Below, piece after piece: positions 3,255 to 17,178 of a stretch of 64,000 bases of DNA. Location of the stretch: positions 1 through 64,000 of the IMG/VR virus record IMGVR_UViG_3300027987_000368, one strand, 5' to 3'. The position numbers and the translations under genes were made by a program. The stretch's first letter is position 1. Every line of letters begins with the position of its first letter. This stretch comes from a virus. The notes below the pieces were generated by a model that searched no databases, was not told the DNA's origin, and saw only the letters and a program-made list of their open reading frames with translations.

Positions 3255-3641
3255 CTAGTTCGAGCAGGTCCAAGAGCCCGGGACAAACTCGTCCCAAGTC
3301 GAGCACCGCACCGCCTCCGCTGCCCCGTTGCAGCCATAGTAGGTGTGCCCGTCGATCGTGGCCTCGCCGAGAGGCCACGCGCAGACGTCCACGTCGGCCA
3401 AGAACGGCTTACTGACGGGGCAGCACCGAACATCGCCAGCATGGGGATTGAGCGGGACGCAGGTCGTCGACTGATCGATGAGACTCCCGTCGCACCAGCC
3501 CAACTCGACGTCGGCCGCTGGAGCGCAGCCGAGCACTTCGACCAGGTCGACAAACGGCTCACAGCTGCCGGGGTCGGTGGCGTCGTCACAGCAGACGAGG
3601 CCGGGGAAGAAGTTCAGGAAGATGACGAGAACGAGATTCAT
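3255..3641 (-). CDS. Cys-rich secreted protein
   Basis: Hydrophobic N-terminus; LVCC...C...C...LGWC pattern resembling 2167..2472. Confidence 0.6.
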   Translation of the reverse strand: MNLVLVIFLNFFPGLVCCDDATDPGSCEPFVDLVEVLGCAPAADVELGWCDGSLIDQSTTCVPLNPHAGDVRCCPVSKPFLADVDVCAWPLGEATIDGHTYYGCNGAAEAVRCSTWDEFVPGSWTCSN

Positions 3642-3651
3642 GCGCTGTACC

Positions 3652-4241
3652 TTAGTGCGCATCGCTCGCTGTTACCAGCCCGAGCCTCGCGTGCTGGCCC
3701 TTGCCGCCCGGGATCAGCTCGACGCCCGCGATCGCCCCAGCCTTGGCCCACTGGTAGATCGACCCGCGGGCCGACACTTCGTTCGCGTAGTGATGCCGGC
3801 CCTTCAGCGCCAGAACAGCCTCGCGGATCGTCATCGGCCCGCGAGCCAGAACCGTTCGGAGTGCCTCGCACGTCGACGCGTATGGCGTCCACCGCTTTCC
3901 GTCAGCGTTGCCGGCGGCCGCGAAGTGCTGCTGCTCCTCGCGCAGCGCGGCCCGCATACACCCATGCACGCGCCGATGTCGAGCAGGTCGGACGATCTCG
4001 CGCAGTCGGCTCGGCATGCCGCGGAGCATCCAGTCGACTCGGTCAGGGGCGTGAACCTCGAGCACGCCGATCCCGAATCGGCCGGCGACCTCGAGCGCTA
4101 GGTCGCGCGTCGAGCTCCGGCGACCATTGGCCACGGCGACCGACACCAACGTCGCGGCTCCTGGTAGACGGTCCAGCCGCGGGCGCGCAGTTCGTCGACC
4201 ACGACCTTGGCGAGCTCGGTCTCTTTCTTCGTCCAGGCCAT
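3652..4241 (-). pseudogene. Frame-disrupted, probably nuclease-like phage gene
   Basis: ATG at 4241 directly follows the upstream stop and gives MAWTKKETELAKVVVDELRARGWTVYQE, stopping at 4098; the plausible C-terminal part (VSVAV...GIGVLEV...HHY) is in another frame. Confidence 0.5.
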
Positions 4242-4594: not shown

Positions 4595-5287
4595 CTACTT
4601 CGCGCCACCAAGGTGGCGAACTGGGTCGAGCATGCCGATCAGCGTGGACATCAGCTCCTGCGTGAGGCCCAACACCTGGCCCATCGACGTCTGGCGAATC
4701 TCGGCGAGGGTGGACTCAGCCTTGAGCGCGCGGTCGCGCCACTGCGCGAGCGTGACGGTGTTGGGCGCCTCCGCAAGCGAGTTGTCGTCAAGCACGAGCG
4801 ACAGCGGTCGCGGTGTCCCGCGCACGCCCTCCGGCTCCGGCCGGCCCTCGCTCCTCCGCTTGTAGAGCAGCGCCCACGCGCAGGCGTTGCCCCGCTGGGC
4901 CTCGGTCTGCTCGAGCTTGCTGCGCAGCGTGATGACCTCATGGTGGTCCTCGACGTCGGCGAAGCCGGCGGCCCGACACAGCAAGCGCGCGGGCGCGAGG
5001 TCCTCTTCGGTGAGCTGCTCCTTGGTCTCCCAGGGCGCGAGGTCGAGTTCGATGGCGATGTTGATCACCAATTCGTCGGCCCCAAACGATGGGTGCGAGA
5101 TCGGCTCTTTTCCGGAGGCGGCGCGACGCTGATCGATAAACGAGATGATGTCGTGGTACTTCGCTACCTCGATGCGCATCTGTGTGCGTACCCAGTCCAG
5201 GAGCTCGACGAGTTCGATGGCCTCGACATCCTGGCTTGAATCTAGCCAGGTCGCGGCGATGATCTTGATGTTTTGCGGGACGCTCAT
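4595..5287 (-). CDS. Hypothetical protein
   Basis: ATG overlaps the upstream stop (ATGA). Confidence 0.65.
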   Translation of the reverse strand: MSVPQNIKIIAATWLDSSQDVEAIELVELLDWVRTQMRIEVAKYHDIISFIDQRRAASGKEPISHPSFGADELVINIAIELDLAPWETKEQLTEEDLAPARLLCRAAGFADVEDHHEVITLRSKLEQTEAQRGNACAWALLYKRRSEGRPEPEGVRGTPRPLSLVLDDNSLAEAPNTVTLAQWRDRALKAESTLAEIRQTSMGQVLGLTQELMSTLIGMLDPVRHLGGAK

Positions 5288-5841
5288 CCTGGATGCACCT
5301 CTGCCGCCTCTCGCATGCGGCTGGTAAGCTCCCACGCACACGAGTCTGCGGGCGGGGAGTCGACGTTGATCGGGATATATTCTCCGTCGTCATCAATCAC
5401 TTCCCAAGGCGATTCGTTTGCCGAACACATGTTGAATGCGACCCCGCGAACCGACGTGTCCTCGTGAGCTTCCCGAAGCGCTGCGATGATGCCGACCGCG
5501 CATCGCTCGTCGAGGCGATGCGGCCGAATGTGCTCGGCATGAAATTCCGCCCATCCCTTGGTCAGCACAGGCAGAGCAGCGCGGGCGACCCAGACGTTGT
5601 CGAATGTCGATCCGAGCAGGACGTTCTCGGTGAGGCTCATCCGCGGACTCGGCCACTCATCCCACATAACCTTGATCCCTGGGTCGACCAAGAAGAACGG
5701 GTGTTGCAGCTGGTCGAGATATCCGTACTTCCTCCCGAGCGCACGCCAAACCAACGGGGCGCCCGCATGGTTGTTCGCTGCATCGGCGATCTCTGTCACG
5801 TCACCGCTGGCTTGTACCGCGTAGATCGTCACGTAGCTCAT
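5284..5841 (-). CDS. Hypothetical protein
   Basis: Protein-like composition, operon packing. Confidence 0.65.
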   Translation of the reverse strand: MSYVTIYAVQASGDVTEIADAANNHAGAPLVWRALGRKYGYLDQLQHPFFLVDPGIKVMWDEWPSPRMSLTENVLLGSTFDNVWVARAALPVLTKGWAEFHAEHIRPHRLDERCAVGIIAALREAHEDTSVRGVAFNMCSANESPWEVIDDDGEYIPINVDSPPADSCAWELTSRMREAAEVHPG

Positions 5842-5938: not shown

Positions 5939-7198
5939 TCATGGCTCGTACCGGTCGATCGCAGCTTCAAACCTCGGGAACCCGAGCTCGTCGAAGAACT
6001 CGTTGAGCGCCCGCCTCGACGTCGACCAGGGCCGGAGCGCATCGAGGGGGCAAGGCAGCGCGACCCGGCGCAGCTCGATCAAGCGGCGGCCCAGCCTGAT
6101 CGCCTCGGCGTTGTCGCGCAACGCCTCGCTGACGCGGCGCCCCGGCACCAGCGCCCAACGGCCGAGAAGCTGTTCGAGGTCGCCATGGTCGGCGAGCAGC
6201 TTCGCGGCAGTCTTCTTCCCCACCCCGGGGCAGCCGGGGATCCCATCGACCTTGTCGCCCGCGAGCGCCAATAGGTCCCCGAGGAGCTCGGGGCCGACGC
6301 CGTACTTGCCCCGGACGTACTCGGCCCCGCGCAGCTCAAGGTCGCCGAACCCAGACATCACCGAGACGACACCGAGCGGATGGTCGACCAGCTGCAGCAA
6401 GTCCTTGTCGTCGGTGATGATCACGACCTCGATCCCGGCGGAGGCGGCCGCCTCGGTGTAGGCCGCGATCACGTCATCGGCCTCGACCCCCTCGGACCGG
6501 ACCCAGGGCAGCCCGAGCGCGTCGAGCAGTCGGCGGACGAGCTGCCACTGGCTCATCAGCGCCGCGTCTTGCGGCGGCCGATCGGCCTTGTAGGCGGGGT
6601 ACTCGCGCGCCCGCCAGCCGCCGTTGCTCGCCGCATCGAAGACACCCAGCGCCCAGCGCGGCGTTGGGTCGATCTGGGTCCTGATCTTTCGCAGCTGCCG
6701 GGTCAGCCCGAGCACCGCGTTGATCGGCACGGGGTCCCCGGTGGGGCTGAGCTCGGGGGGGACCGCGTGATAGAGGCGATGGACCAGGCCATCGAGATCG
6801 AGCAGGTAGAGCTTGTCGCCTGCGCGCGGGCAGGGCTCCGCAGAGGCTTCCGGTGAGGACTGGCTCCGCAACGGGGCCCGGTGCAGCTCCGACTCCGGCC
6901 GCGGGCTCCTCGTCAGCCTGGCATGGGTTGCGACCATCGCGTCGTGCTCGGCCCGCTCGACGGGCTCATGCGTTCCCCGATGTGCGCAAAAAGGGCAGAG
7001 ATCGGTGGCGTTGTCGATGTGCGCACAACCCTTGCCGCGCCCGCGCGAGCAGACGATCGCCGTCACCGTGGCCGCGGACCTCATCGAGCAGCTCAAGCAC
7101 ACCGGAGAACTGCATGTTTCGTCGGTCCCGGCAACAGCGCCGTCGCAGAGGCGACCCGCTGGCGACCCGCACCATGGGCAGAGAGGTTGGGCTGGCAT
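5939..7198 (-). CDS. 5'-3' exonuclease (PolI N-terminal/flap endonuclease family) with N-terminal Cys-rich Zn-finger extension
   Basis: LLDLDG..HRLYHA, VFD, YPAYKADR, EADDVI, DKDLLQLV, LAGDKVDGIPGCPGVGKKTA; start inferred. Confidence 0.9.
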   Translation of the reverse strand: MPAQPLCPWCGSPAGRLCDGAVAGTDETCSSPVCLSCSMRSAATVTAIVCSRGRGKGCAHIDNATDLCPFCAHRGTHEPVERAEHDAMVATHARLTRSPRPESELHRAPLRSQSSPEASAEPCPRAGDKLYLLDLDGLVHRLYHAVPPELSPTGDPVPINAVLGLTRQLRKIRTQIDPTPRWALGVFDAASNGGWRAREYPAYKADRPPQDAALMSQWQLVRRLLDALGLPWVRSEGVEADDVIAAYTEAAASAGIEVVIITDDKDLLQLVDHPLGVVSVMSGFGDLELRGAEYVRGKYGVGPELLGDLLALAGDKVDGIPGCPGVGKKTAAKLLADHGDLEQLLGRWALVPGRRVSEALRDNAEAIRLGRRLIELRRVALPCPLDALRPWSTSRRALNEFFDELGFPRFEAAIDRYEP

Positions 7199-7301
7199 CG
7201 GGAGGAATACCCACCGTAGCTGCCCTGCTATTCCAGCACTTCGGGTACGCTCACCCATCGGTCGGGGCGCGTGCGGGGCGGGGCTCCGGGGTGGGCGTGG
7301 G

Positions 7302-7793
7302 TCAGCGCGCGTCTCGCTTGCGGTCGCGGGCGCTCGCGTCTCGGTGGGCCGATGAGCAGAACAGCTTGAGCGCTTCGAGGATTCGCCCAACCTCCTGGTA
7401 GCGATCAGCCAAGCTCACGCGGTCGAACTCCGCAAGTTCGGCCTCGGCCCTGGCGCCCGAGGCAACCCGGCACAGCACCAGTCCCAGTCGGCACAGCACC
7501 AGGCCTGGCTCACCTGACTCGCGGGTGACGAAGAGCCGCATATCCGGCTCGAGCCAGCGCGCGAACGCGGCGACGTGCCCGTGCTGGATCTTTGTGCCGT
7601 CGGGCAGCACCCTGCTGGCGAAGAACATCGGATCTGCGGATAGCCCCCGCACGCGTCCGGTCAGCGCGCGGTTGCGGGTCATGGTGTCGAAGGTCAGCGA
7701 GTTGGCGCCGCGGTCGAGCGTGAAGCTCTCGCCCACGTCGAGCGGTCGAGCGAGAAGGTAGAGCCCGCGGGCGACATTGGTCTTGGTGTCCAT
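7302..7793 (-). CDS. Hypothetical protein
   Basis: ORF starting just downstream of a hairpin repeat. Confidence 0.6.
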   Translation of the reverse strand: MDTKTNVARGLYLLARPLDVGESFTLDRGANSLTFDTMTRNRALTGRVRGLSADPMFFASRVLPDGTKIQHGHVAAFARWLEPDMRLFVTRESGEPGLVLCRLGLVLCRVASGARAEAELAEFDRVSLADRYQEVGRILEALKLFCSSAHRDASARDRKRDAR

Positions 7794-7801
7794 CACCGCC
7801 G

Positions 7802-7839
7802 AAGCCCCGCGCGACCGATGTCGGGCGGGGCTCGGCGCG
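7802..7839 (-). repeat. Hairpin repeat copy A (terminator-like)
   Basis: AGCCCCGC-g-CGAC-cgat-GTCG-g-GCGGGGCT. Confidence 0.8.
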
Positions 7840-7849
7840 GCGAAACGTC

Positions 7850-8098
7850 CTACTGGTGCGGGCCCTCGTGCTCGCGACAGGATGAGTAATCAGCGCTCGG
7901 TCCCGATCCGAAGCAGGTCATATACCCACCATTGCAGTTCCAGGTCTGGGCTGTTTGCGTGCCGTCGTCCGCGTACGTCTTTCCGACTGAACGACAGTTT
8001 TCCATGCCAGGCGGAGGTGCCCACGCGAGTGCCGTGGCGCCAGCAGTTGTGATGAACGTAATGAGCAAGATGGGAATGGTGAACTTGAGTTTTGACAT
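7850..8098 (-). CDS. Small secreted protein with 4 Cys
   Basis: Signal peptide MSKLKFTIPILLITFITTAGATALAWA. Confidence 0.7.
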   Translation of the reverse strand: MSKLKFTIPILLITFITTAGATALAWAPPPGMENCRSVGKTYADDGTQTAQTWNCNGGYMTCFGSGPSADYSSCREHEGPHQ

Positions 8099-8105
8099 CT
8101 ACCTG

Positions 8106-8144
8106 AAAAGCCCCGCGCGACCAGGTCAGGCGGGGCTCAGCGCG
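8106..8144 (-). repeat. Hairpin repeat copy B
   Basis: AAAAGCCCCGCGCGACCAGGTCAGGCGGGGCTCAGCGCG, near-identical to copy A. Confidence 0.8.
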
Positions 8145-8156
8145 TCTGGTGTTCGG

Positions 8157-8741
8157 TCACTCTTGCGCCTGGCGAAGCACGCGGTCGAGCTCGGCCGCGA
8201 TCAGGGCGCCCGCGATCGTTAGGCATCGGACCGGATCTCCTCGGTGTTTCGCCACCAGGCCCCAGGCGTCGTGTTCACCTTCGTGCGGATTCAGCTCATA
8301 GTCGGTGTGCACCAGGGCAAGCTCCGCCCCGCGCACCGCGAGTTCACCGTCGCCGTGCTCGTCGTCGTGCTCAGCACTCCACCGCCCCATCTGGCGGGAT
8401 CGCTCGGCAGCAATCGCGGTGATCGCCAGTGACCACCGCGACTCGACTGACGCTTTCCACGCGTCCACCACCGCCTCGACGGCATGCTCGCGGACGGGCC
8501 CAACATGTTGACGGCCGGGCTCATCTAGAACCGCGATGAAGCTGACGCCATCGATCTTGATGTCATAGCCCATGGGTAGGACGGGCAACCTAAGCACGGG
8601 ATCGTCGAACGGTTCCCTCGAGATCACGGTCGCGGTCTGGGCCGCCATGTTGACCTCGACGACCATGTCGGCGGAGATCATCGCCTCGGGTGACGGCTTT
8701 TGGTGGGAGAGATAGACGAGTAGCTTGGGCTCATTGCTCAC
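8157..8741 (-). CDS. Phage protein with AERxRQ..W..EHDD.H..GELA C-terminal domain
   Basis: Motif common in phage accessory proteins; function unknown. Confidence 0.7.
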   Translation of the reverse strand: MSNEPKLLVYLSHQKPSPEAMISADMVVEVNMAAQTATVISREPFDDPVLRLPVLPMGYDIKIDGVSFIAVLDEPGRQHVGPVREHAVEAVVDAWKASVESRWSLAITAIAAERSRQMGRWSAEHDDEHGDGELAVRGAELALVHTDYELNPHEGEHDAWGLVAKHRGDPVRCLTIAGALIAAELDRVLRQAQE

Positions 8742-8748
8742 ACGTCGG

Positions 8749-8788
8749 AAGCCCCGGCGACCTTCGCAGGTCCGGGGCTCCGGGGCTT
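8749..8788 (-). repeat. Hairpin repeat copy C
   Basis: AAGCCCCGGCGACCTTCGCAGGTCCGGGGCTCCGGGGCTT. Confidence 0.75.
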
Positions 8789-9005
8789 GTCAGCACTGCA
8801 TGGCTGGCCTCCCGGTTGTTCTCGCTCGCTTGATCCGCGGAGCGCTTCGCGGTGGACCATCGCGGTCCGTGGATGCTGTCGTCGTTTGATGTTTCGGTAG
8901 CCGCGTTACTTCGTGCGGCGCATGCTCCTGGCTCCGGGTTTGAGTATTGGTGGACGCGAGCCCCACGGTGTCTTACCGGACCTCGCGCCGACTCATTCCC
9001 GGCTA

Positions 9006-10154
9006 CTACTCGACAACGACGTCCAGCCAGCGAGACCCCGCGTCCGTGCGTACCTCGACGATGTCATGCTCGCCGCGGGCAAGCGCATCGCTCGTGGCTT
9101 GATCGACGACGAGTAGGTCTCCGACCTCGAGACCGAGATACGTCGGGAGCGAGTCCAGGTCAGCTCGCGTGAGCTCGAGGCCGACGTACTCGCCGGTCGA
9201 GTCGAATACGGGCGCAGCGTCGAAGCGGTCGAACGTCTCGGCGTGCGTCAGCCACAAGAACACCTCGGGCAGAATCGAGACCGACTCGCCGGACATCCAC
9301 ACCAGTTCCGGCGCCCAAAACTCCCCCGGAACAGGGGGTAGATGTGGGCTTGATGTCCCGTGTGGGCCGTCCCAGGTGCACATGGTCGGCTGTGTCCAGA
9401 AATGACGACCGTGGTGGTCAACCGGCAAGAAAAGCGCCTCACACACAGCACCTGGCTGGCACTCCTCATCGGTATGCTCGGGGCACGCGCAAGTGACAGA
9501 CGACGTAGGAGCATACGACGAAGGCACTCCGTCGTAGCGGTAGTGGTGCGGATCGCATCCGAACCCGACCCCAGTCTCCCCGCAATTCATGCGGTCGTAC
9601 CATGGTCCGATGCCGTTGAGGGCCTTCGTGGCCAGGCGAGCGGTCCCGTCACCTGGCGCACACATTGGCCAGACACCATCGAAGTCATGGGCGACCCCCA
9701 CGAGACCGGGATCATCCTCTTTGAGATCCGTTATGTCGCAGTATGAACACCAATAGTCCACTGCCCCCACTCCATCATCCCAGCGCTCATTGCACGGGAA
9801 GCTGCGGCTGAGATTTGGACACGTCGCGCTGTCGACGAGCTCTAGTCCGCCCGGGATATCGAGCGGAGAGAGCACGACATCGCCAACGAAGCAGACCGAG
9901 TGATCGCTCGGCTGGCACGAGAGCACGGGCCCGGGCTCTTCGCCCCCCGTATCGCCCCCACCGGGAGGGCACGGCTGACCAAGTTGATCAGGACATTCGA
10001 GGCAATACTCGAGCACGGCGCTCCCTTGCGGGGCGAGTGGATTCGATCCGGGTGGACCCTTGCATGGGTCTGGCGCGAGGTAGTTGCACGCGGTTGACAA
10101 TATGCCGGCGGTCACGAGACCGACGACCATGATGGGTTGACGTGATGTAGTCAC
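9006..10154 (-). CDS. Cys-rich lipoprotein with C-terminal GspC-type PDZ-like segment
   Basis: Lipobox-like ILSTAC; C-terminus PVFDSTGEYVGLELTRADLDSLPTYLGLEVGDLLVV. Confidence 0.7.
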   Translation of the reverse strand: MTTSRQPIMVVGLVTAGILSTACNYLAPDPCKGPPGSNPLAPQGSAVLEYCLECPDQLGQPCPPGGGDTGGEEPGPVLSCQPSDHSVCFVGDVVLSPLDIPGGLELVDSATCPNLSRSFPCNERWDDGVGAVDYWCSYCDITDLKEDDPGLVGVAHDFDGVWPMCAPGDGTARLATKALNGIGPWYDRMNCGETGVGFGCDPHHYRYDGVPSSYAPTSSVTCACPEHTDEECQPGAVCEALFLPVDHHGRHFWTQPTMCTWDGPHGTSSPHLPPVPGEFWAPELVWMSGESVSILPEVFLWLTHAETFDRFDAAPVFDSTGEYVGLELTRADLDSLPTYLGLEVGDLLVVDQATSDALARGEHDIVEVRTDAGSRWLDVVVE

Positions 10155-10159
10155 ACCCG

Positions 10160-10189
10160 AAAAGCCCCGTCCCTTGTGAGGGCGGAGCT
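10160..10189 (-). repeat. Hairpin repeat copy D (diverged)
   Basis: AAAAGCCCCGTCCCTTGTGAGGGCGGAGCT. Confidence 0.65.
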
Positions 10190-10230
10190 ATCGCGCAACG
10201 GCCGAGTAACGGCCTATAGGCGCCGTAGGA

Positions 10231-10377
10231 CTACGGTGCACATCTGAGCCGCAATCTCCGAATCACACTCTTGCGTAACACGCCAGCTGCGATGATCGGA
10301 ATAGCGACAATGACGACGACGAGTGCAGCCGGTATGCACGCCACTGCAAGCGCCACGCGCTCGGGTGAATGGTTCAT
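10231..10377 (-). CDS. 48-aa single-TM peptide (below the ORF-track cutoff)
   Basis: Manual translation MNHSPERVALAVACIPAALVVVIVAIPIIAAGVLRKSVIRRLRLRCAP. Confidence 0.45.
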   Translation of the reverse strand: MNHSPERVALAVACIPAALVVVIVAIPIIAAGVLRKSVIRRLRLRCAP

Positions 10378-10399: not shown

Positions 10400-11395
10400 T
10401 TACCGAACTGCGGAACGGTACATTCCAGGAGCCATGAACAAACCCAACTTTAGCGCCTGTTCAGTCGTCTCGGTCCCGGGCTGCTGGCGGACGTCACCCG
10501 GTCGCGCGCCGGGGAACGGGAGCCACTTGCGATCGTGGCTGGCGAGCTCGGGCAGCAGCTCGAGGTGGGTCGTCCCCGTGTACCCGCGCAGCCACAGCGT
10601 CGCGCAGTAGTCGTGCGTGTCGGCGCCGTACTTGACCGGTTTGCCCGCCTTCGCACTGGCCTTCGGGTTGATGTTGCCCCCGCGGAAGTCCACGGTCCCG
10701 CTCACGAGCCACTGGACGGCCGGCGTGTAGCGGCGCCAGATCTCCCGGCCGACGCGCCCACGCTGGAAGCTCTGAGTCTGGGTGAACAGCAGCAGCGCCG
10801 GGGCGACCGCGAGCGCGAGCGCGACCAGGCTGTTCTCGACGGCGCAGTCGAGCCGAGCTGCGTAGGCGCCGGGCTTGTCAGACTTCCGCGATGGCGCCGC
10901 CGCTGGGGCGAGCAGCGTGAATGCCGGGTTGCCGAGGGCAAAGTCGGCAGTCTCGCCCCTCGCCGCCATCGCGCGCAGCTCCTCGACGACGTCGGTGGTC
11001 ACGACATCGTCGCACCACTTCTCCGCGTGCTCGCGCTTCGTCGGGTCGATCTCGATCCCCGTGATGTGGATCGGCCAGTCGGCGCGGCGGCGCAGCTCGG
11101 ACTCCCAGACGCCAAAGCCCGTGCAGAGGCCAAGCCCGCGGATCGCCGGACGCGGCGGGCTGACCAGCCGGTGACGATCGCTACCGGCGAAGCAGAGCTC
11201 AGGCATCAGGGGATTGATCGCGCCGACGCCAACGTACAGCCGAGGATTTGCTGGGCCGAAGACCGCGGCCAGGCATGCTCGAGCCACGCCGCGCGGCGTG
11301 AGGTCCTCCTCGAGCCCGCGCGCCGCGTCGTGAGCAGCTGCAGCTTGGGCCTCGCGCTCGTTGGCGGCGGCTTGCAGTTCTGGGAACAGGGTCAT
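10400..11395 (-). CDS. SAM-dependent amino (N6A/N4C) DNA methyltransferase
   Basis: LCTGFGVW, GIEID and GNPAF (NPPF-like) motifs. Confidence 0.7.
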   Translation of the reverse strand: MTLFPELQAAANEREAQAAAAHDAARGLEEDLTPRGVARACLAAVFGPANPRLYVGVGAINPLMPELCFAGSDRHRLVSPPRPAIRGLGLCTGFGVWESELRRRADWPIHITGIEIDPTKREHAEKWCDDVVTTDVVEELRAMAARGETADFALGNPAFTLLAPAAAPSRKSDKPGAYAARLDCAVENSLVALALAVAPALLLFTQTQSFQRGRVGREIWRRYTPAVQWLVSGTVDFRGGNINPKASAKAGKPVKYGADTHDYCATLWLRGYTGTTHLELLPELASHDRKWLPFPGARPGDVRQQPGTETTEQALKLGLFMAPGMYRSAVR

Positions 11396-13667: not shown

Positions 13668-14430
13668 GCTGGGCGCCGACGGGGCCCGATGACTGCGGCC
13701 GGCCGCGAACGCGAGTGGCCCGACGCGGCGGGTCTGCTGGCGTCGAGTACCCCACGCTGAGCCGCTCAACCATCTCGGATGCCTCACGCATCGAGAGCCC
13801 TGCGTCTGCCACCGCCGAGCTGAGTTCGTCCATCAGCGACGTGAGTGCTGGCAGCAACACCAGGCCCGTGCGCTTCGTTAGCCCATCATATGCCTGCGAG
13901 ATGGCGGTGTCGCTCGTGGCCGCTTGCCACTCCAGCACGAGCACCAGCTCGCGCTCAAGCTCCTTGCGGGCGGGGTGCGTCCACCAGCCGCCCCACCTTC
14001 GCGGGGCGAGCAGAGCTGCGATCCAGTATCCCCAACGATTGCCGTCTAGCATGAGCTGCTCCGCGATGATGGTCAGATCGTCGCGCGCGCACGCTGCCCC
14101 GTCGATGAACTCCTTGATCAGCGTGGTCAAGGTGACTCGGACCACACCAACGCGGTCGCTCGGGCTGATTCGCCGAACAGCCTCATGGAACACCAATCCG
14201 CCAGTCCCCGCGGTCGACCATACGTCGAAGTACCCGCGCCCGCAGCATCGCGTGCAGGTACGTTCCACGAACACGCCAGGGCCGAAGCCGTCGCTCTCCG
14301 CTATGACCGCGAGAACATCGAAGGCATGAACCCAGCTGTCGATGTTCACGCCGTGTGGCACGTATCCGGCGCCGATCCCAGCATGGATGCACGCAAGCAG
14401 GTCTGGGTATTGCTCGGTCATCACTGTCAC
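13639..14430 (-). CDS. Hypothetical protein with CxxCxGxG
   Basis: CTRCCGRG; operon packing. Confidence 0.6.
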   Translation of the reverse strand: MTVMTEQYPDLLACIHAGIGAGYVPHGVNIDSWVHAFDVLAVIAESDGFGPGVFVERTCTRCCGRGYFDVWSTAGTGGLVFHEAVRRISPSDRVGVVRVTLTTLIKEFIDGAACARDDLTIIAEQLMLDGNRWGYWIAALLAPRRWGGWWTHPARKELERELVLVLEWQAATSDTAISQAYDGLTKRTGLVLLPALTSLMDELSSAVADAGLSMREASEMVERLSVGYSTPADPPRRATRVRGRPQSSGPVGAQLMRRLDRRR

Positions 14431-17133: not shown

Positions 17134-17178
17134 TCGACATGACCACATTGTCTGACTCGGATAATGTGGTCATGTCGA
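17134..17178. promoter_or_regulatory. 16-bp perfect inverted repeat containing the 25-bp operator core (may double as a terminator)
   Basis: TCGACATGACCACATT-N13-AATGTGGTCATGTCGA. Confidence 0.75.

Follow-up and report, generated by a model that had tools for sequence, protein, structure and literature searches.

How phages gain and lose small orphan genes, candidates for superinfection exclusion and anti-defence among them, is poorly understood. Among exchange devices, the PeSL found in T4-like coliphages and vibriophages is the best documented; it is a conserved intergenic cassette composed of an early promoter and a G/C-tract stem-loop and has been described in phi1/RB49, PST/T4 and nt-1/KVP40 (PMC2839356; PMC4122927). 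PeSLs precede ORFans (orphan open reading frames) in hyperplastic regions, where they terminate or attenuate transcription and mediate the formation of indels, replacements and mini-circles (PMC2839356; PMC4122927). Start-associated repeats of another kind, SAS and ESAS, occur in one orientation and only in the non-structural part of Cluster K mycobacteriophage genomes, where their function is unknown; SAS is a 13-bp GGGATAGGAGCCC box 3–8 bp before the start, and ESAS an imperfect inverted repeat (17-bp) with a variable 4–13 bp spacer, just upstream of the start (PMC3203893). Here we describe a GC-rich intercistronic hairpin found in four copies in a 64,000-nucleotide stretch of viral DNA (the window; positions 1–64,000 of IMG/VR record IMGVR_UViG_3300027987_000368, the whole 80,843-bp genome of which we call G0) and in five further copies in related phages. 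Among described systems, the PeSLs of T4-like phages come nearest to it: hairpin exchange junctions are already known there, and what is new is a promoter-less GC-rich variant in uncultured myophages. The explanation that we favour, and to which we give about an even chance, is a lineage-specific intercistronic hairpin that acts as a leaky attenuator or stabiliser of the transcript and doubles, like a PeSL, as a homology patch for modular gene shuffling.

The four hairpins in the window, A–D, lie within 2.4 kb and are oriented in the sense direction of the minus-strand genes that they separate (Table 1). Read on the minus strand, they consist of (G)AGC(C/T)CCG, an apex and CGGGGCTT; site A reads …GCGCCGAGCCCCGCCCGACAUCGGUCGCGCGGGGCUUCGGCGGUGAUGG, site B …GCGCUGAGCCCCGCCUGACCUGGUCGCGCGGGGCUUUUCAGGUAGAUG, site C …CCCCGGAGCCCCGGACCUGCGAAGGUCGCCGGGGCUUCCGACGUGUGAGC and site D …GCGAUAGCUCCGCCCUCACAAGGGACGGGGCUUUUCGGGUGUGACU. 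All four fold into interrupted helices of 15–17 pairs, with energies of −21.7 to −35.0 kcal/mol (coding strand, hairpin only). The motif AGCCCCG-N6–30-CGGGGCT has three matches in the window compared with 0.04 in shuffled sequences; it has no further match elsewhere in the 80,843-bp G0 genome and four matches in approximately 2.2 Mb of unrelated loci. Site D is a diverged copy, AGCTCCG..CGGGGCT with one G·U pair, the coding strand of which is 5.7 kcal/mol more stable than the opposite strand. A preliminary description of this DNA had reported four related hairpins with a conserved outer stem and an inner stem and loop that vary and still pair, and both statements agree with the motif counts and the per-copy folds. 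It had also placed the hairpins 5–10 nt before start codons. Measured to the longest-ORF starts (7796/7793, 8098, 8741 and 10154), the distance is 5–9 nt; the start at 8098 is secure, as it opens a signal peptide, and there is more doubt about those at 8741 and 10154.

The half copy that the same description saw near 7275–7290 and related to C is real (7274–7293) and does not fold. It has CCCCGGAGCCCCG in common with the 5′ arm of C, an extra copy of which is duplicated in tandem at 8780–8788. On sequence grounds, the half copy and the duplicated arm resemble scars of gene-replacement events.

G0 is complete (direct terminal repeats; CheckV completeness 100%; 65% G+C) and carries a tail sheath gene, which identifies it as a myovirus. 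No cultured relative of the sheath protein above 33% identity was found, and megablast of G0 DNA against GenBank phages returned no close DNA relative. The comparison set consists of G0 and three related IMG/VR records, G1 (94.9 kb), G2 (97.5 kb) and G3 (a 33-kb fragment). Structural proteins are common to all four at 40–92% identity (most at 70–92%), with largely different accessory gene content. Where the source of cellular homologues of the G0 exonuclease described below is named, it is mostly Sorangium and Polyangiaceae, which hints that the host of this phage group is probably a myxobacterium.

Searches with a covariance model built from six copies (R1) and with sequence patterns yielded five further copies: one in G1 (61.9 kb), three in G2 (19.0 kb, termed G2-19k; 48.33 kb, E; 48.03 kb, F) and one in G3 (3.65 kb). 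The element is therefore conserved in four phages. All nine copies are in sense orientation with respect to the surrounding genes, and all nine are located among accessory, lineage-specific ORFans. In seven, the start codon follows the CTT at the end of the hairpin by 5–9 nt (exactly 7 nt in C, D, E and F; 5–9 nt in A, B and G3), whereas in G1 and G2-19k the hairpin and the start are 22 nt apart, with a GAAGGA Shine–Dalgarno sequence in between. Helix length over the nine copies ranges from 12 pairs, in G1 and G2-19k, to 22, and stem energy from −22 to −38 kcal/mol. A stop codon stands 17–25 nt upstream of the hairpin in six copies, the overall range being 17 to more than 200 nt.

These properties can be set against those of the two described systems. 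As with PeSLs, a conserved intergenic motif in plastic, non-structural regions stands directly upstream of ORFans (here in nine copies in four phages), includes a stable stem-loop with G- and C-tracts (here GCCCCG/CGGGGC) and ends with the start codon of the next gene, and indels or replacements are bounded by the motif (here in the pairs G1/G2-19k and G2-F/G3 and in a 'gene X' module found in two contexts, all detailed below). Unlike PeSLs, the G0 element has no sigma-70-like −35/−10 promoter, offering only 5–9 nt of room and no TTGACA- or TATAAT-like boxes, although the promoter consensus of the host may differ. A Shine–Dalgarno sequence accompanies only two of the nine copies, there are 1–4 copies per genome instead of approximately 50, and the lineage is GC-rich, uncultured and unrelated to T4. 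With SAS/ESAS the element shares its tie to start codons, its single orientation and its confinement to the non-structural part of the genome. It differs in having CGGGGCTT-N5-GT as its conserved flank rather than the GGGATAGGAGCCC box, in its much more GC-rich and stable stems, and in its distribution: ESAS remains associated with particular gene families, whereas nearly identical copies of the present element link genes that are unrelated.

The conserved outer stem is, judged by its occurrence in databases, a common convergent terminator shape. Scanning IMG/VR for GCCCCGCC-N4–20-CGCGGGGCTT returned at least 119 unrelated contigs with a single site in each, and 78% of these generic sites have at least five T in the 8-nt tail, marking them as ordinary terminators; the A/B-type motif gave 12 single matches, in unrelated bacteria, among 185,579 species genomes. 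The earlier argument that terminators would not normally share sequence was thus overstated, since terminators have widely converged on the GCCCCGCC..CGCGGGGCTT stem. A–D could be ordinary intrinsic terminators of independently acquired morons, with the shared AGCCCCG…CGGGGCTT reflecting convergence on the commonest GC-rich shape and the proximity to starts reflecting genome compaction. Plain U-poor terminators of a GC-rich host are a serious rival to a leaky attenuator, and we regard the terminator explanation as unlikely, albeit with appreciable weight. It is supported by the generic sites, found mostly with T-runs in the viral contigs and singly in diverse bacteria, by the 0–5 copies of the stem in most sampled genomes of the class of a Polyangiaceae metagenome-assembled genome (MAG), and by the lowered G+C content at third codon positions (GC3) in three cargo genes (0.61–0.71), which is expected of foreign morons. 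As in an intrinsic terminator, a GC-rich stem-loop follows the stop codon by 17–25 nt, with A before and TT after the stem, and the stem is among the commonest terminator shapes in phages and bacteria. GC-rich bacteria reportedly use U-poor terminators, although this is debated. A further point in favour comes from a minus-strand hairpin of G0 at 71058–71087, beyond the window, which has a GC stem followed by TTTTTT and ends 5 nt before a longest-ORF TTG at 71053; a start-abutting hairpin thus also exists in G0 with an unrelated canonical terminator.

What separates the nine copies from generic hairpins lies outside the outer stem. Their tails are U-poor, with 2–4 T in 8 nt in all nine copies, whereas only 22% of generic same-stem hairpins have four or fewer, and the terminator scan did not call A–D; the preliminary description was right in this respect to doubt that the hairpins are plain terminators. 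A lower stem pairs the UU and the next 3–6 nt with the 5′ flank, so that the Us expected to be free in a terminator are paired in seven of the nine copies. Its sequence varies and its pairing is kept (GCCGA/UCGGC, CUGA/UCAG, CGGA/UCCG, GCCGGA/UUCGGC); this covariation was taken from the per-copy folds, since MAFFT misaligns 5′ arms that differ in apex length. The flanks are conserved as well. CGGGGCTT is present in all nine copies and is followed five nt later by GT in eight; GGTCGCGCGGGGCTT is common to A and B, with C one base short of the same sequence, and the 5′ flank GCGC(C/T)GAGCCCCGCC is also common to A and B. Similarity beyond the stem (the CTT-N5-GT flank and the first codons) persists between unrelated flanking genes, and no other scanned contig has more than two physical hairpins of this stem within approximately 10 kb. 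In contrast to intrinsic terminators, the hairpins are embedded in what appears to be an operon, directly ahead of the following start. An unpaired U-tract is lacking, a promoter would not fit into the gap that separates hairpin and start, and the conserved exonuclease gene lies downstream in this apparent leftward operon, which argues that the hairpins are not efficient terminators.

A similar arrangement was seen in an unrelated 37-kb viral contig (L201 5–36; G007 9554–9603), where GCCCCGCCCGGC…CGCGCGGGGCTT is followed by CCTCAGTAGA, resembling the G1/G2-19k flank CAGTAGAAGGA. That contig has no protein similarity to G0–G2.

Evidence for exchange comes from mosaic junctions. Over about 60 nt, a span that begins with ACCAC, includes the hairpin and ends with the ATG, the G1 and G2-19k elements are approximately 85% identical; the genes upstream of them have no tblastx match to each other, and no alignment whatever was obtained between the downstream proteins (74 and 265 aa). 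Identity between the G2-F and G3 elements is approximately 93% over about 62 nt, the first 4–5 codons (ATGGA.A.CAAG) included, and neither the gene bodies (148 and 114 aa) nor the genes upstream are related. In a third case the downstream gene is retained. Gene X of G0 (164 aa) and the 148-aa gene after hairpin F of G2 are 33% identical over 98 aa by BLASTP, with a Smith–Waterman score of 96 compared with 28 ± 4.6 (maximum 59) for shuffled sequences, and the hairpin-plus-gene X module precedes a FEN-type exonuclease in G0, whereas in G2 it precedes the DUF3799 exonuclease that belongs to the recombination module. These junctions indicate that the element persists while its neighbours on either side are replaced, and that it can travel with the downstream ORF.

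The A–D array fills a slot that is itself variable. By synteny, the slot is flanked by an ECF sigma factor, a 254-aa gene and a 331-aa gene on one side and by the exonuclease on the other. The slots of G1 and G2 are occupied by other genes, which in G2 are tightly overlapping and hairpin-free, and none of the five G0 slot genes has a homologue in either. The notion of a cassette-like shuffling locus, to be checked by looking for different genes in relatives, is supported by this comparison and by the joining of unrelated genes to similar elements.

The proposed means of shuffling did not fare as well. The hairpins had been suggested to be folded recombination sites for a tyrosine or HUH recombinase. 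On that integron-like or REP/RAYT-like (repetitive extragenic palindrome/REP-associated tyrosine transposase) model, folded single-strand sites would let a dedicated enzyme shuffle the cassettes, and the locus does show an array of same-orientation, apparently promoterless and unrelated ORFs split by imperfect inverted repeats with a conserved base and a variable centre, as well as a hairpin-plus-ORF module at different places in two phages. However, the complete G0 genome has no match to Phage_integrase (PF00589; all 14 control genomes were positive), to Resolvase or to Y1_Tnp/HUH transposase (PF01797), controls being positive for both of the latter; no integron core sites GTTRRRY/RYYYAAC, whether R′ or R″, are present at the bases of A–D ((G)AGCCCCG … CGGGGCTT), and there is no attI. 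Instead of following a cassette, the element is placed upstream of the start codon and adjoins it, and its strict sense orientation and start-codon coupling are better explained at the RNA level. We consider such a dedicated system extremely improbable.

Nor does the motif form a repeat family in the species-representative genomes scanned. In the Polyangiaceae MAG (10 Mb) a relaxed motif has 37 matches compared with 33 for a reversed control, and most of 151 sampled genomes of that MAG's class have 0–5 copies. The possibility of a genome-wide host REP is thereby dismissed for the genomes searched, a set to which the phage's true host is not known to belong. Two other repeat families came to light in these scans. 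A REP-like family, GCCCCGG(C/A)AGTGAATTCCGGGGCTT, with the same outer stem and a different apex, has approximately eight copies on several contigs of the Polyangiaceae MAG (G008). In another genome of the sampled class (G046), contigs C71, C500, C532 and C199 carry tandem units with periods of 27–45 nt that end in GTAGTGCGGGGCTT and start with AGCCCCGC; these resemble tandem arrays, of the CRISPR or another type, and account for an inflated motif count in that genome.

G0 does encode machinery for homologous exchange. A recombination module at genome positions 73039–74810, beyond the window, consists of a DUF3799 PD-(D/E)XK exonuclease followed by an ERF-family annealing protein, and a RecD2-like helicase is encoded at 76156–78309. 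For recombination by phage annealing-protein systems, a few tens of nucleotides of homology suffice. We infer homology-based recombination rather than the action of a dedicated enzyme.

On the reading that we favour, the element, which is carried by a group of uncultured GC-rich myophages, spans approximately 45–70 nt. Its base, (GCCG)A-GCCCCG … CGGGGC-UU-(CGGC), is conserved, its apex varies in sequence without loss of pairing, and in most copies it stands 5–9 nt before the next start. At the RNA level, the hairpins would punctuate a long leftward polycistronic early transcript, each serving as a leaky attenuator and 3′-end-protecting structure, less than a full terminator, and grading how strongly the individual small accessory genes are expressed. 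In the DNA, the same 45–60 nt present at many gene boundaries would provide homology patches at which accessory genes, or hairpin-plus-ORF modules, could be gained, lost or exchanged by homologous recombination, the exchange probably being performed by the phage's own ERF annealing protein and PD-(D/E)XK exonuclease.

Three features favour a role in the transcript: the sense orientation, the G·U pairs, which in D, E, F and G3 give the coding strand the advantage, and the fixed distance from the start. The array appears to be co-transcribed: a promoter scan found no site at or near A–D, and the only promoter-like site on the minus strand in that scan is at 13913–13885. Sigma-54 (GG-N10-GC) and ECF (GGAAC…CGT) promoters, sought by eye in the 3′ arm and flank, were rejected, the spacing being off by one or the motifs absent. 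Extension of the upstream protein by read-through was likewise discarded; the stop before the gene A start is in frame with the upstream 82-aa gene, and the equivalent at B is out of frame.

A transcript-level role could also take the form of RNA processing. The early mRNAs of T7 and SP82 contain intercistronic RNase III sites, related hairpins with an interrupted helix in sense orientation, and the present hairpins are likewise related, interrupted and placed between the cistrons of what would be a phage early polycistronic transcript. Cuts by an RNase III-type enzyme would release monocistronic mRNAs, leave a protective 3′ hairpin on the upstream message and free an occluded start downstream. 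The helices are long (15–22 pairs) and are interrupted by a mismatch or bulge where the outer stem gives way to the inner one, a free U-tract is absent, and all nine copies are intercistronic and sense-oriented; the start at the helix foot lacks a Shine–Dalgarno sequence in seven of nine, so unprocessed RNA should be poorly translated. Several helices, however, are shorter than two turns (12 pairs in G1 and G2-19k), start occlusion may matter less in a genome in which only 19 of 80 genes have a Shine–Dalgarno sequence, and there is no sequence relationship to the T7 and SP82 sites. RNase III-type processing is a serious rival to the leaky attenuator that we hold to be unlikely; from the anatomy of the hairpins we would expect attenuation or stabilisation rather than processing.

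The same spacing could instead reflect translational control, with the hairpin hiding the ribosome-binding region and the G-rich 3′ arm, so that each accessory gene would be translated only once a regulator, a change in temperature or an upstream ribosome had opened the stem. The 7 nt between CTT and start in C, D, E and F (5–9 nt in A, B and G3) would fit such an operator, as would the locking into the stem of the sole G-run near the start (GGGG, 10–11 nt upstream), the extension of the lower stem of A to the start codon and the similar start association of the SAS/ESAS repeats of Cluster K mycobacteriophages (PMC3203893). Set against this, the upstream stops lie 17 to more than 200 nt before the hairpin, where terminating ribosomes would not melt the stem; the G1 and G2-19k hairpins are 22 nt from the start with a free GAAGGA in between; and no candidate regulator was identified. 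An operator is in our estimation very unlikely.

At the DNA level, a stronger version would make the hairpin-plus-start an actively mobilised cassette boundary, hairpin-plus-ORF units moving inside one genome or from one genome of the phage group to another, for example via excised mini-circles or strand-annealing at the folded or homologous element, with the conserved stem base as recognition or annealing determinant. We think this quite unlikely. If true, it would give GC-rich myophages a recombinase-free means of gene capture, functionally parallel to integrons and to PeSL mini-circles.

Several observations weigh against the leaky attenuator and homology patch that we favour. The genomes are few, four in total with one partial, and among them no variant differing by a cassette between two hairpins was seen; recombination at the element is itself read from the mosaic junctions in their sequences. 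The starts at 8741 and 10154, two of the four in G0, are uncertain. The coding strand is the more stable in only four of nine copies, so that the asymmetry favours it weakly, and a PeSL-like promoter component was not found. Finally, the covariance model scan, proposed as a check in the preliminary description, did reveal the further copies in G1–G3 and proved non-specific: unrelated same-stem hairpins score 27–31 bits with R1 (up to 30.6), and the non-training copies E, F and G3, at 19–29 bits, are not above them. The membership of these three is consequently based on flank similarity, not on score.

If the favoured explanation is correct, a promoter-less GC-rich counterpart of the PeSL in unrelated myophages would mean that exchange-point hairpins are recurrent and not a peculiarity of T4. 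CGGGGCTT-N5-GT-start, together with the covarying lower stem, would be a usable marker for delimiting accessory-gene cassettes in metagenomic phage genomes. As leaky attenuators or processing sites, the hairpins would also count with the earliest described RNA regulators in phages whose hosts are myxobacteria-like.

Table 1 Hairpins, genes and spacer of the variable slot of G0, in window coordinates
Feature	Position	Strand	Details
Hairpin A	7795–7840 (core 7803–7832)	minus	Lower stem CGCCGA/UCGGCG extends to GTG/ATG start at 7796/7793; R1 51.1 bits
Hairpin B	8101–8144 (core 8109–8137)	minus	Followed by CTTTTCAGGTAG, ATG at 8098; R1 49.5 bits
Hairpin C	8745–8788 (core 8750–8779)	minus	Tandem extra 5′ arm GCCCCGGAGCCCCGG; followed by CTTCCGACGT, GTG at 8741; R1 42.9 bits
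Hairpin D	10157–10195 (core 10163–10189)	minus	Diverged; followed by CTTTTCGGGT, GTG at 10154; R1 37.8 bits
Half copy	7274–7293	minus	Degenerate, 5′-arm motif only (GGAGCCCCGCCCCGC); unfolded, z = +0.9
331-aa conserved gene	10400–11395	minus	Upstream border of variable slot; methyltransferase-like by synteny
48-aa hydrophobic ORF	10231–10377	minus	First lineage-specific gene of array; no preceding hairpin
382-aa Cys-rich ORFan	9006–10154	minus	N-terminal lipoprotein-type signal (…AGILSTAC)
217-nt spacer	8789–9005	minus	Between 382-aa stop and hairpin C; adjoins extra C 5′ arm at 8780–8788
194-aa ORF	8157–8741	minus	C-terminal ~100 aa match PHROG families of unknown function; start codon uncertain
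82-aa ORF	7850–8098	minus	Sec-type signal peptide (MSKLKF…ATALA/WAPP), four Cys
164-aa gene X	7302–7796	minus	Homologous to 148-aa gene after hairpin F in G2
Zn-finger + FEN-type 5′–3′ exonuclease	5939–7198	minus	Pfam PF02739 + PF01367; conserved, downstream border of slot

The genes between the hairpins are unrelated to each other, as first described: none of the five array proteins has a Pfam match, and the 194-aa protein is the only one with PHROG matches. The 382-aa protein matched only itself among 5.8 billion proteins. Its ORF has a GC3 of 0.71, and the public call is shorter (336 aa, start at 10016 by our count), whereas the longer form opens with a lipoprotein-type signal peptide. GC3 is 0.67 in the 82-aa ORF, which has no family match in Pfam or PHROG, and 0.61 in the 48-aa ORF, compared with approximately 0.84 for core genes; the latter ORF has no homologue in G1 or G2. 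For the gene X protein, no relative was found in IMG/VR viral contigs and no usable lead in the ESM Atlas. ORFs in the spacer at 8789–9005 lack a coding-type GC3 bias, and the spacer could be a decayed cassette or a small RNA.

The 194-aa protein gave, in the IMG/VR scan, distant matches to its C-terminal domain only. In one of these, an unrelated IMG/VR phage (L155), the homologue of this domain at 3449–3721 lies approximately 1.5 kb upstream of a FEN-type exonuclease at 5217–5828. This arrangement echoes that of G0, and on that basis the 194-aa cargo gene may be functionally linked to the exonuclease.

At the borders of the slot, the 331-aa gene has homologues in G1 and G2 at 26–35% identity, and its protein has no Pfam match and found nothing in the IMG/VR scan. 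At 483 aa the exonuclease ORF (5939–7390) is too long, and its public call has 381 aa. Homologues begin approximately 6–10 residues before the conserved CxWC…C…C zinc finger, so the start is likely to be at 7198 (MPAQPLCPWC), which would leave 7199–7301 as an intergenic region that contains the half copy. The fusion of a zinc finger to a FEN domain is common to a set of uncultured phage proteins at 44–68% identity. A metagenome scan with the exonuclease alignment was saturated by generic PolI-type exonucleases and missed the 68%-identical relative P0002. Three DNA runs returned only short matching fragments (for example, 10051–10369 and 8418–8568). A joint between 7081 and 8344, with sides of 21 nt and less than 95% likeness, was taken for another organism.

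Elsewhere in the window, an Rfam scan at the gathering threshold found tRNA only. A near-perfect, relatively AT-rich palindrome of 18 pairs (17134–17178; −33 kcal/mol) lies between convergent genes and is probably a bidirectional terminator.

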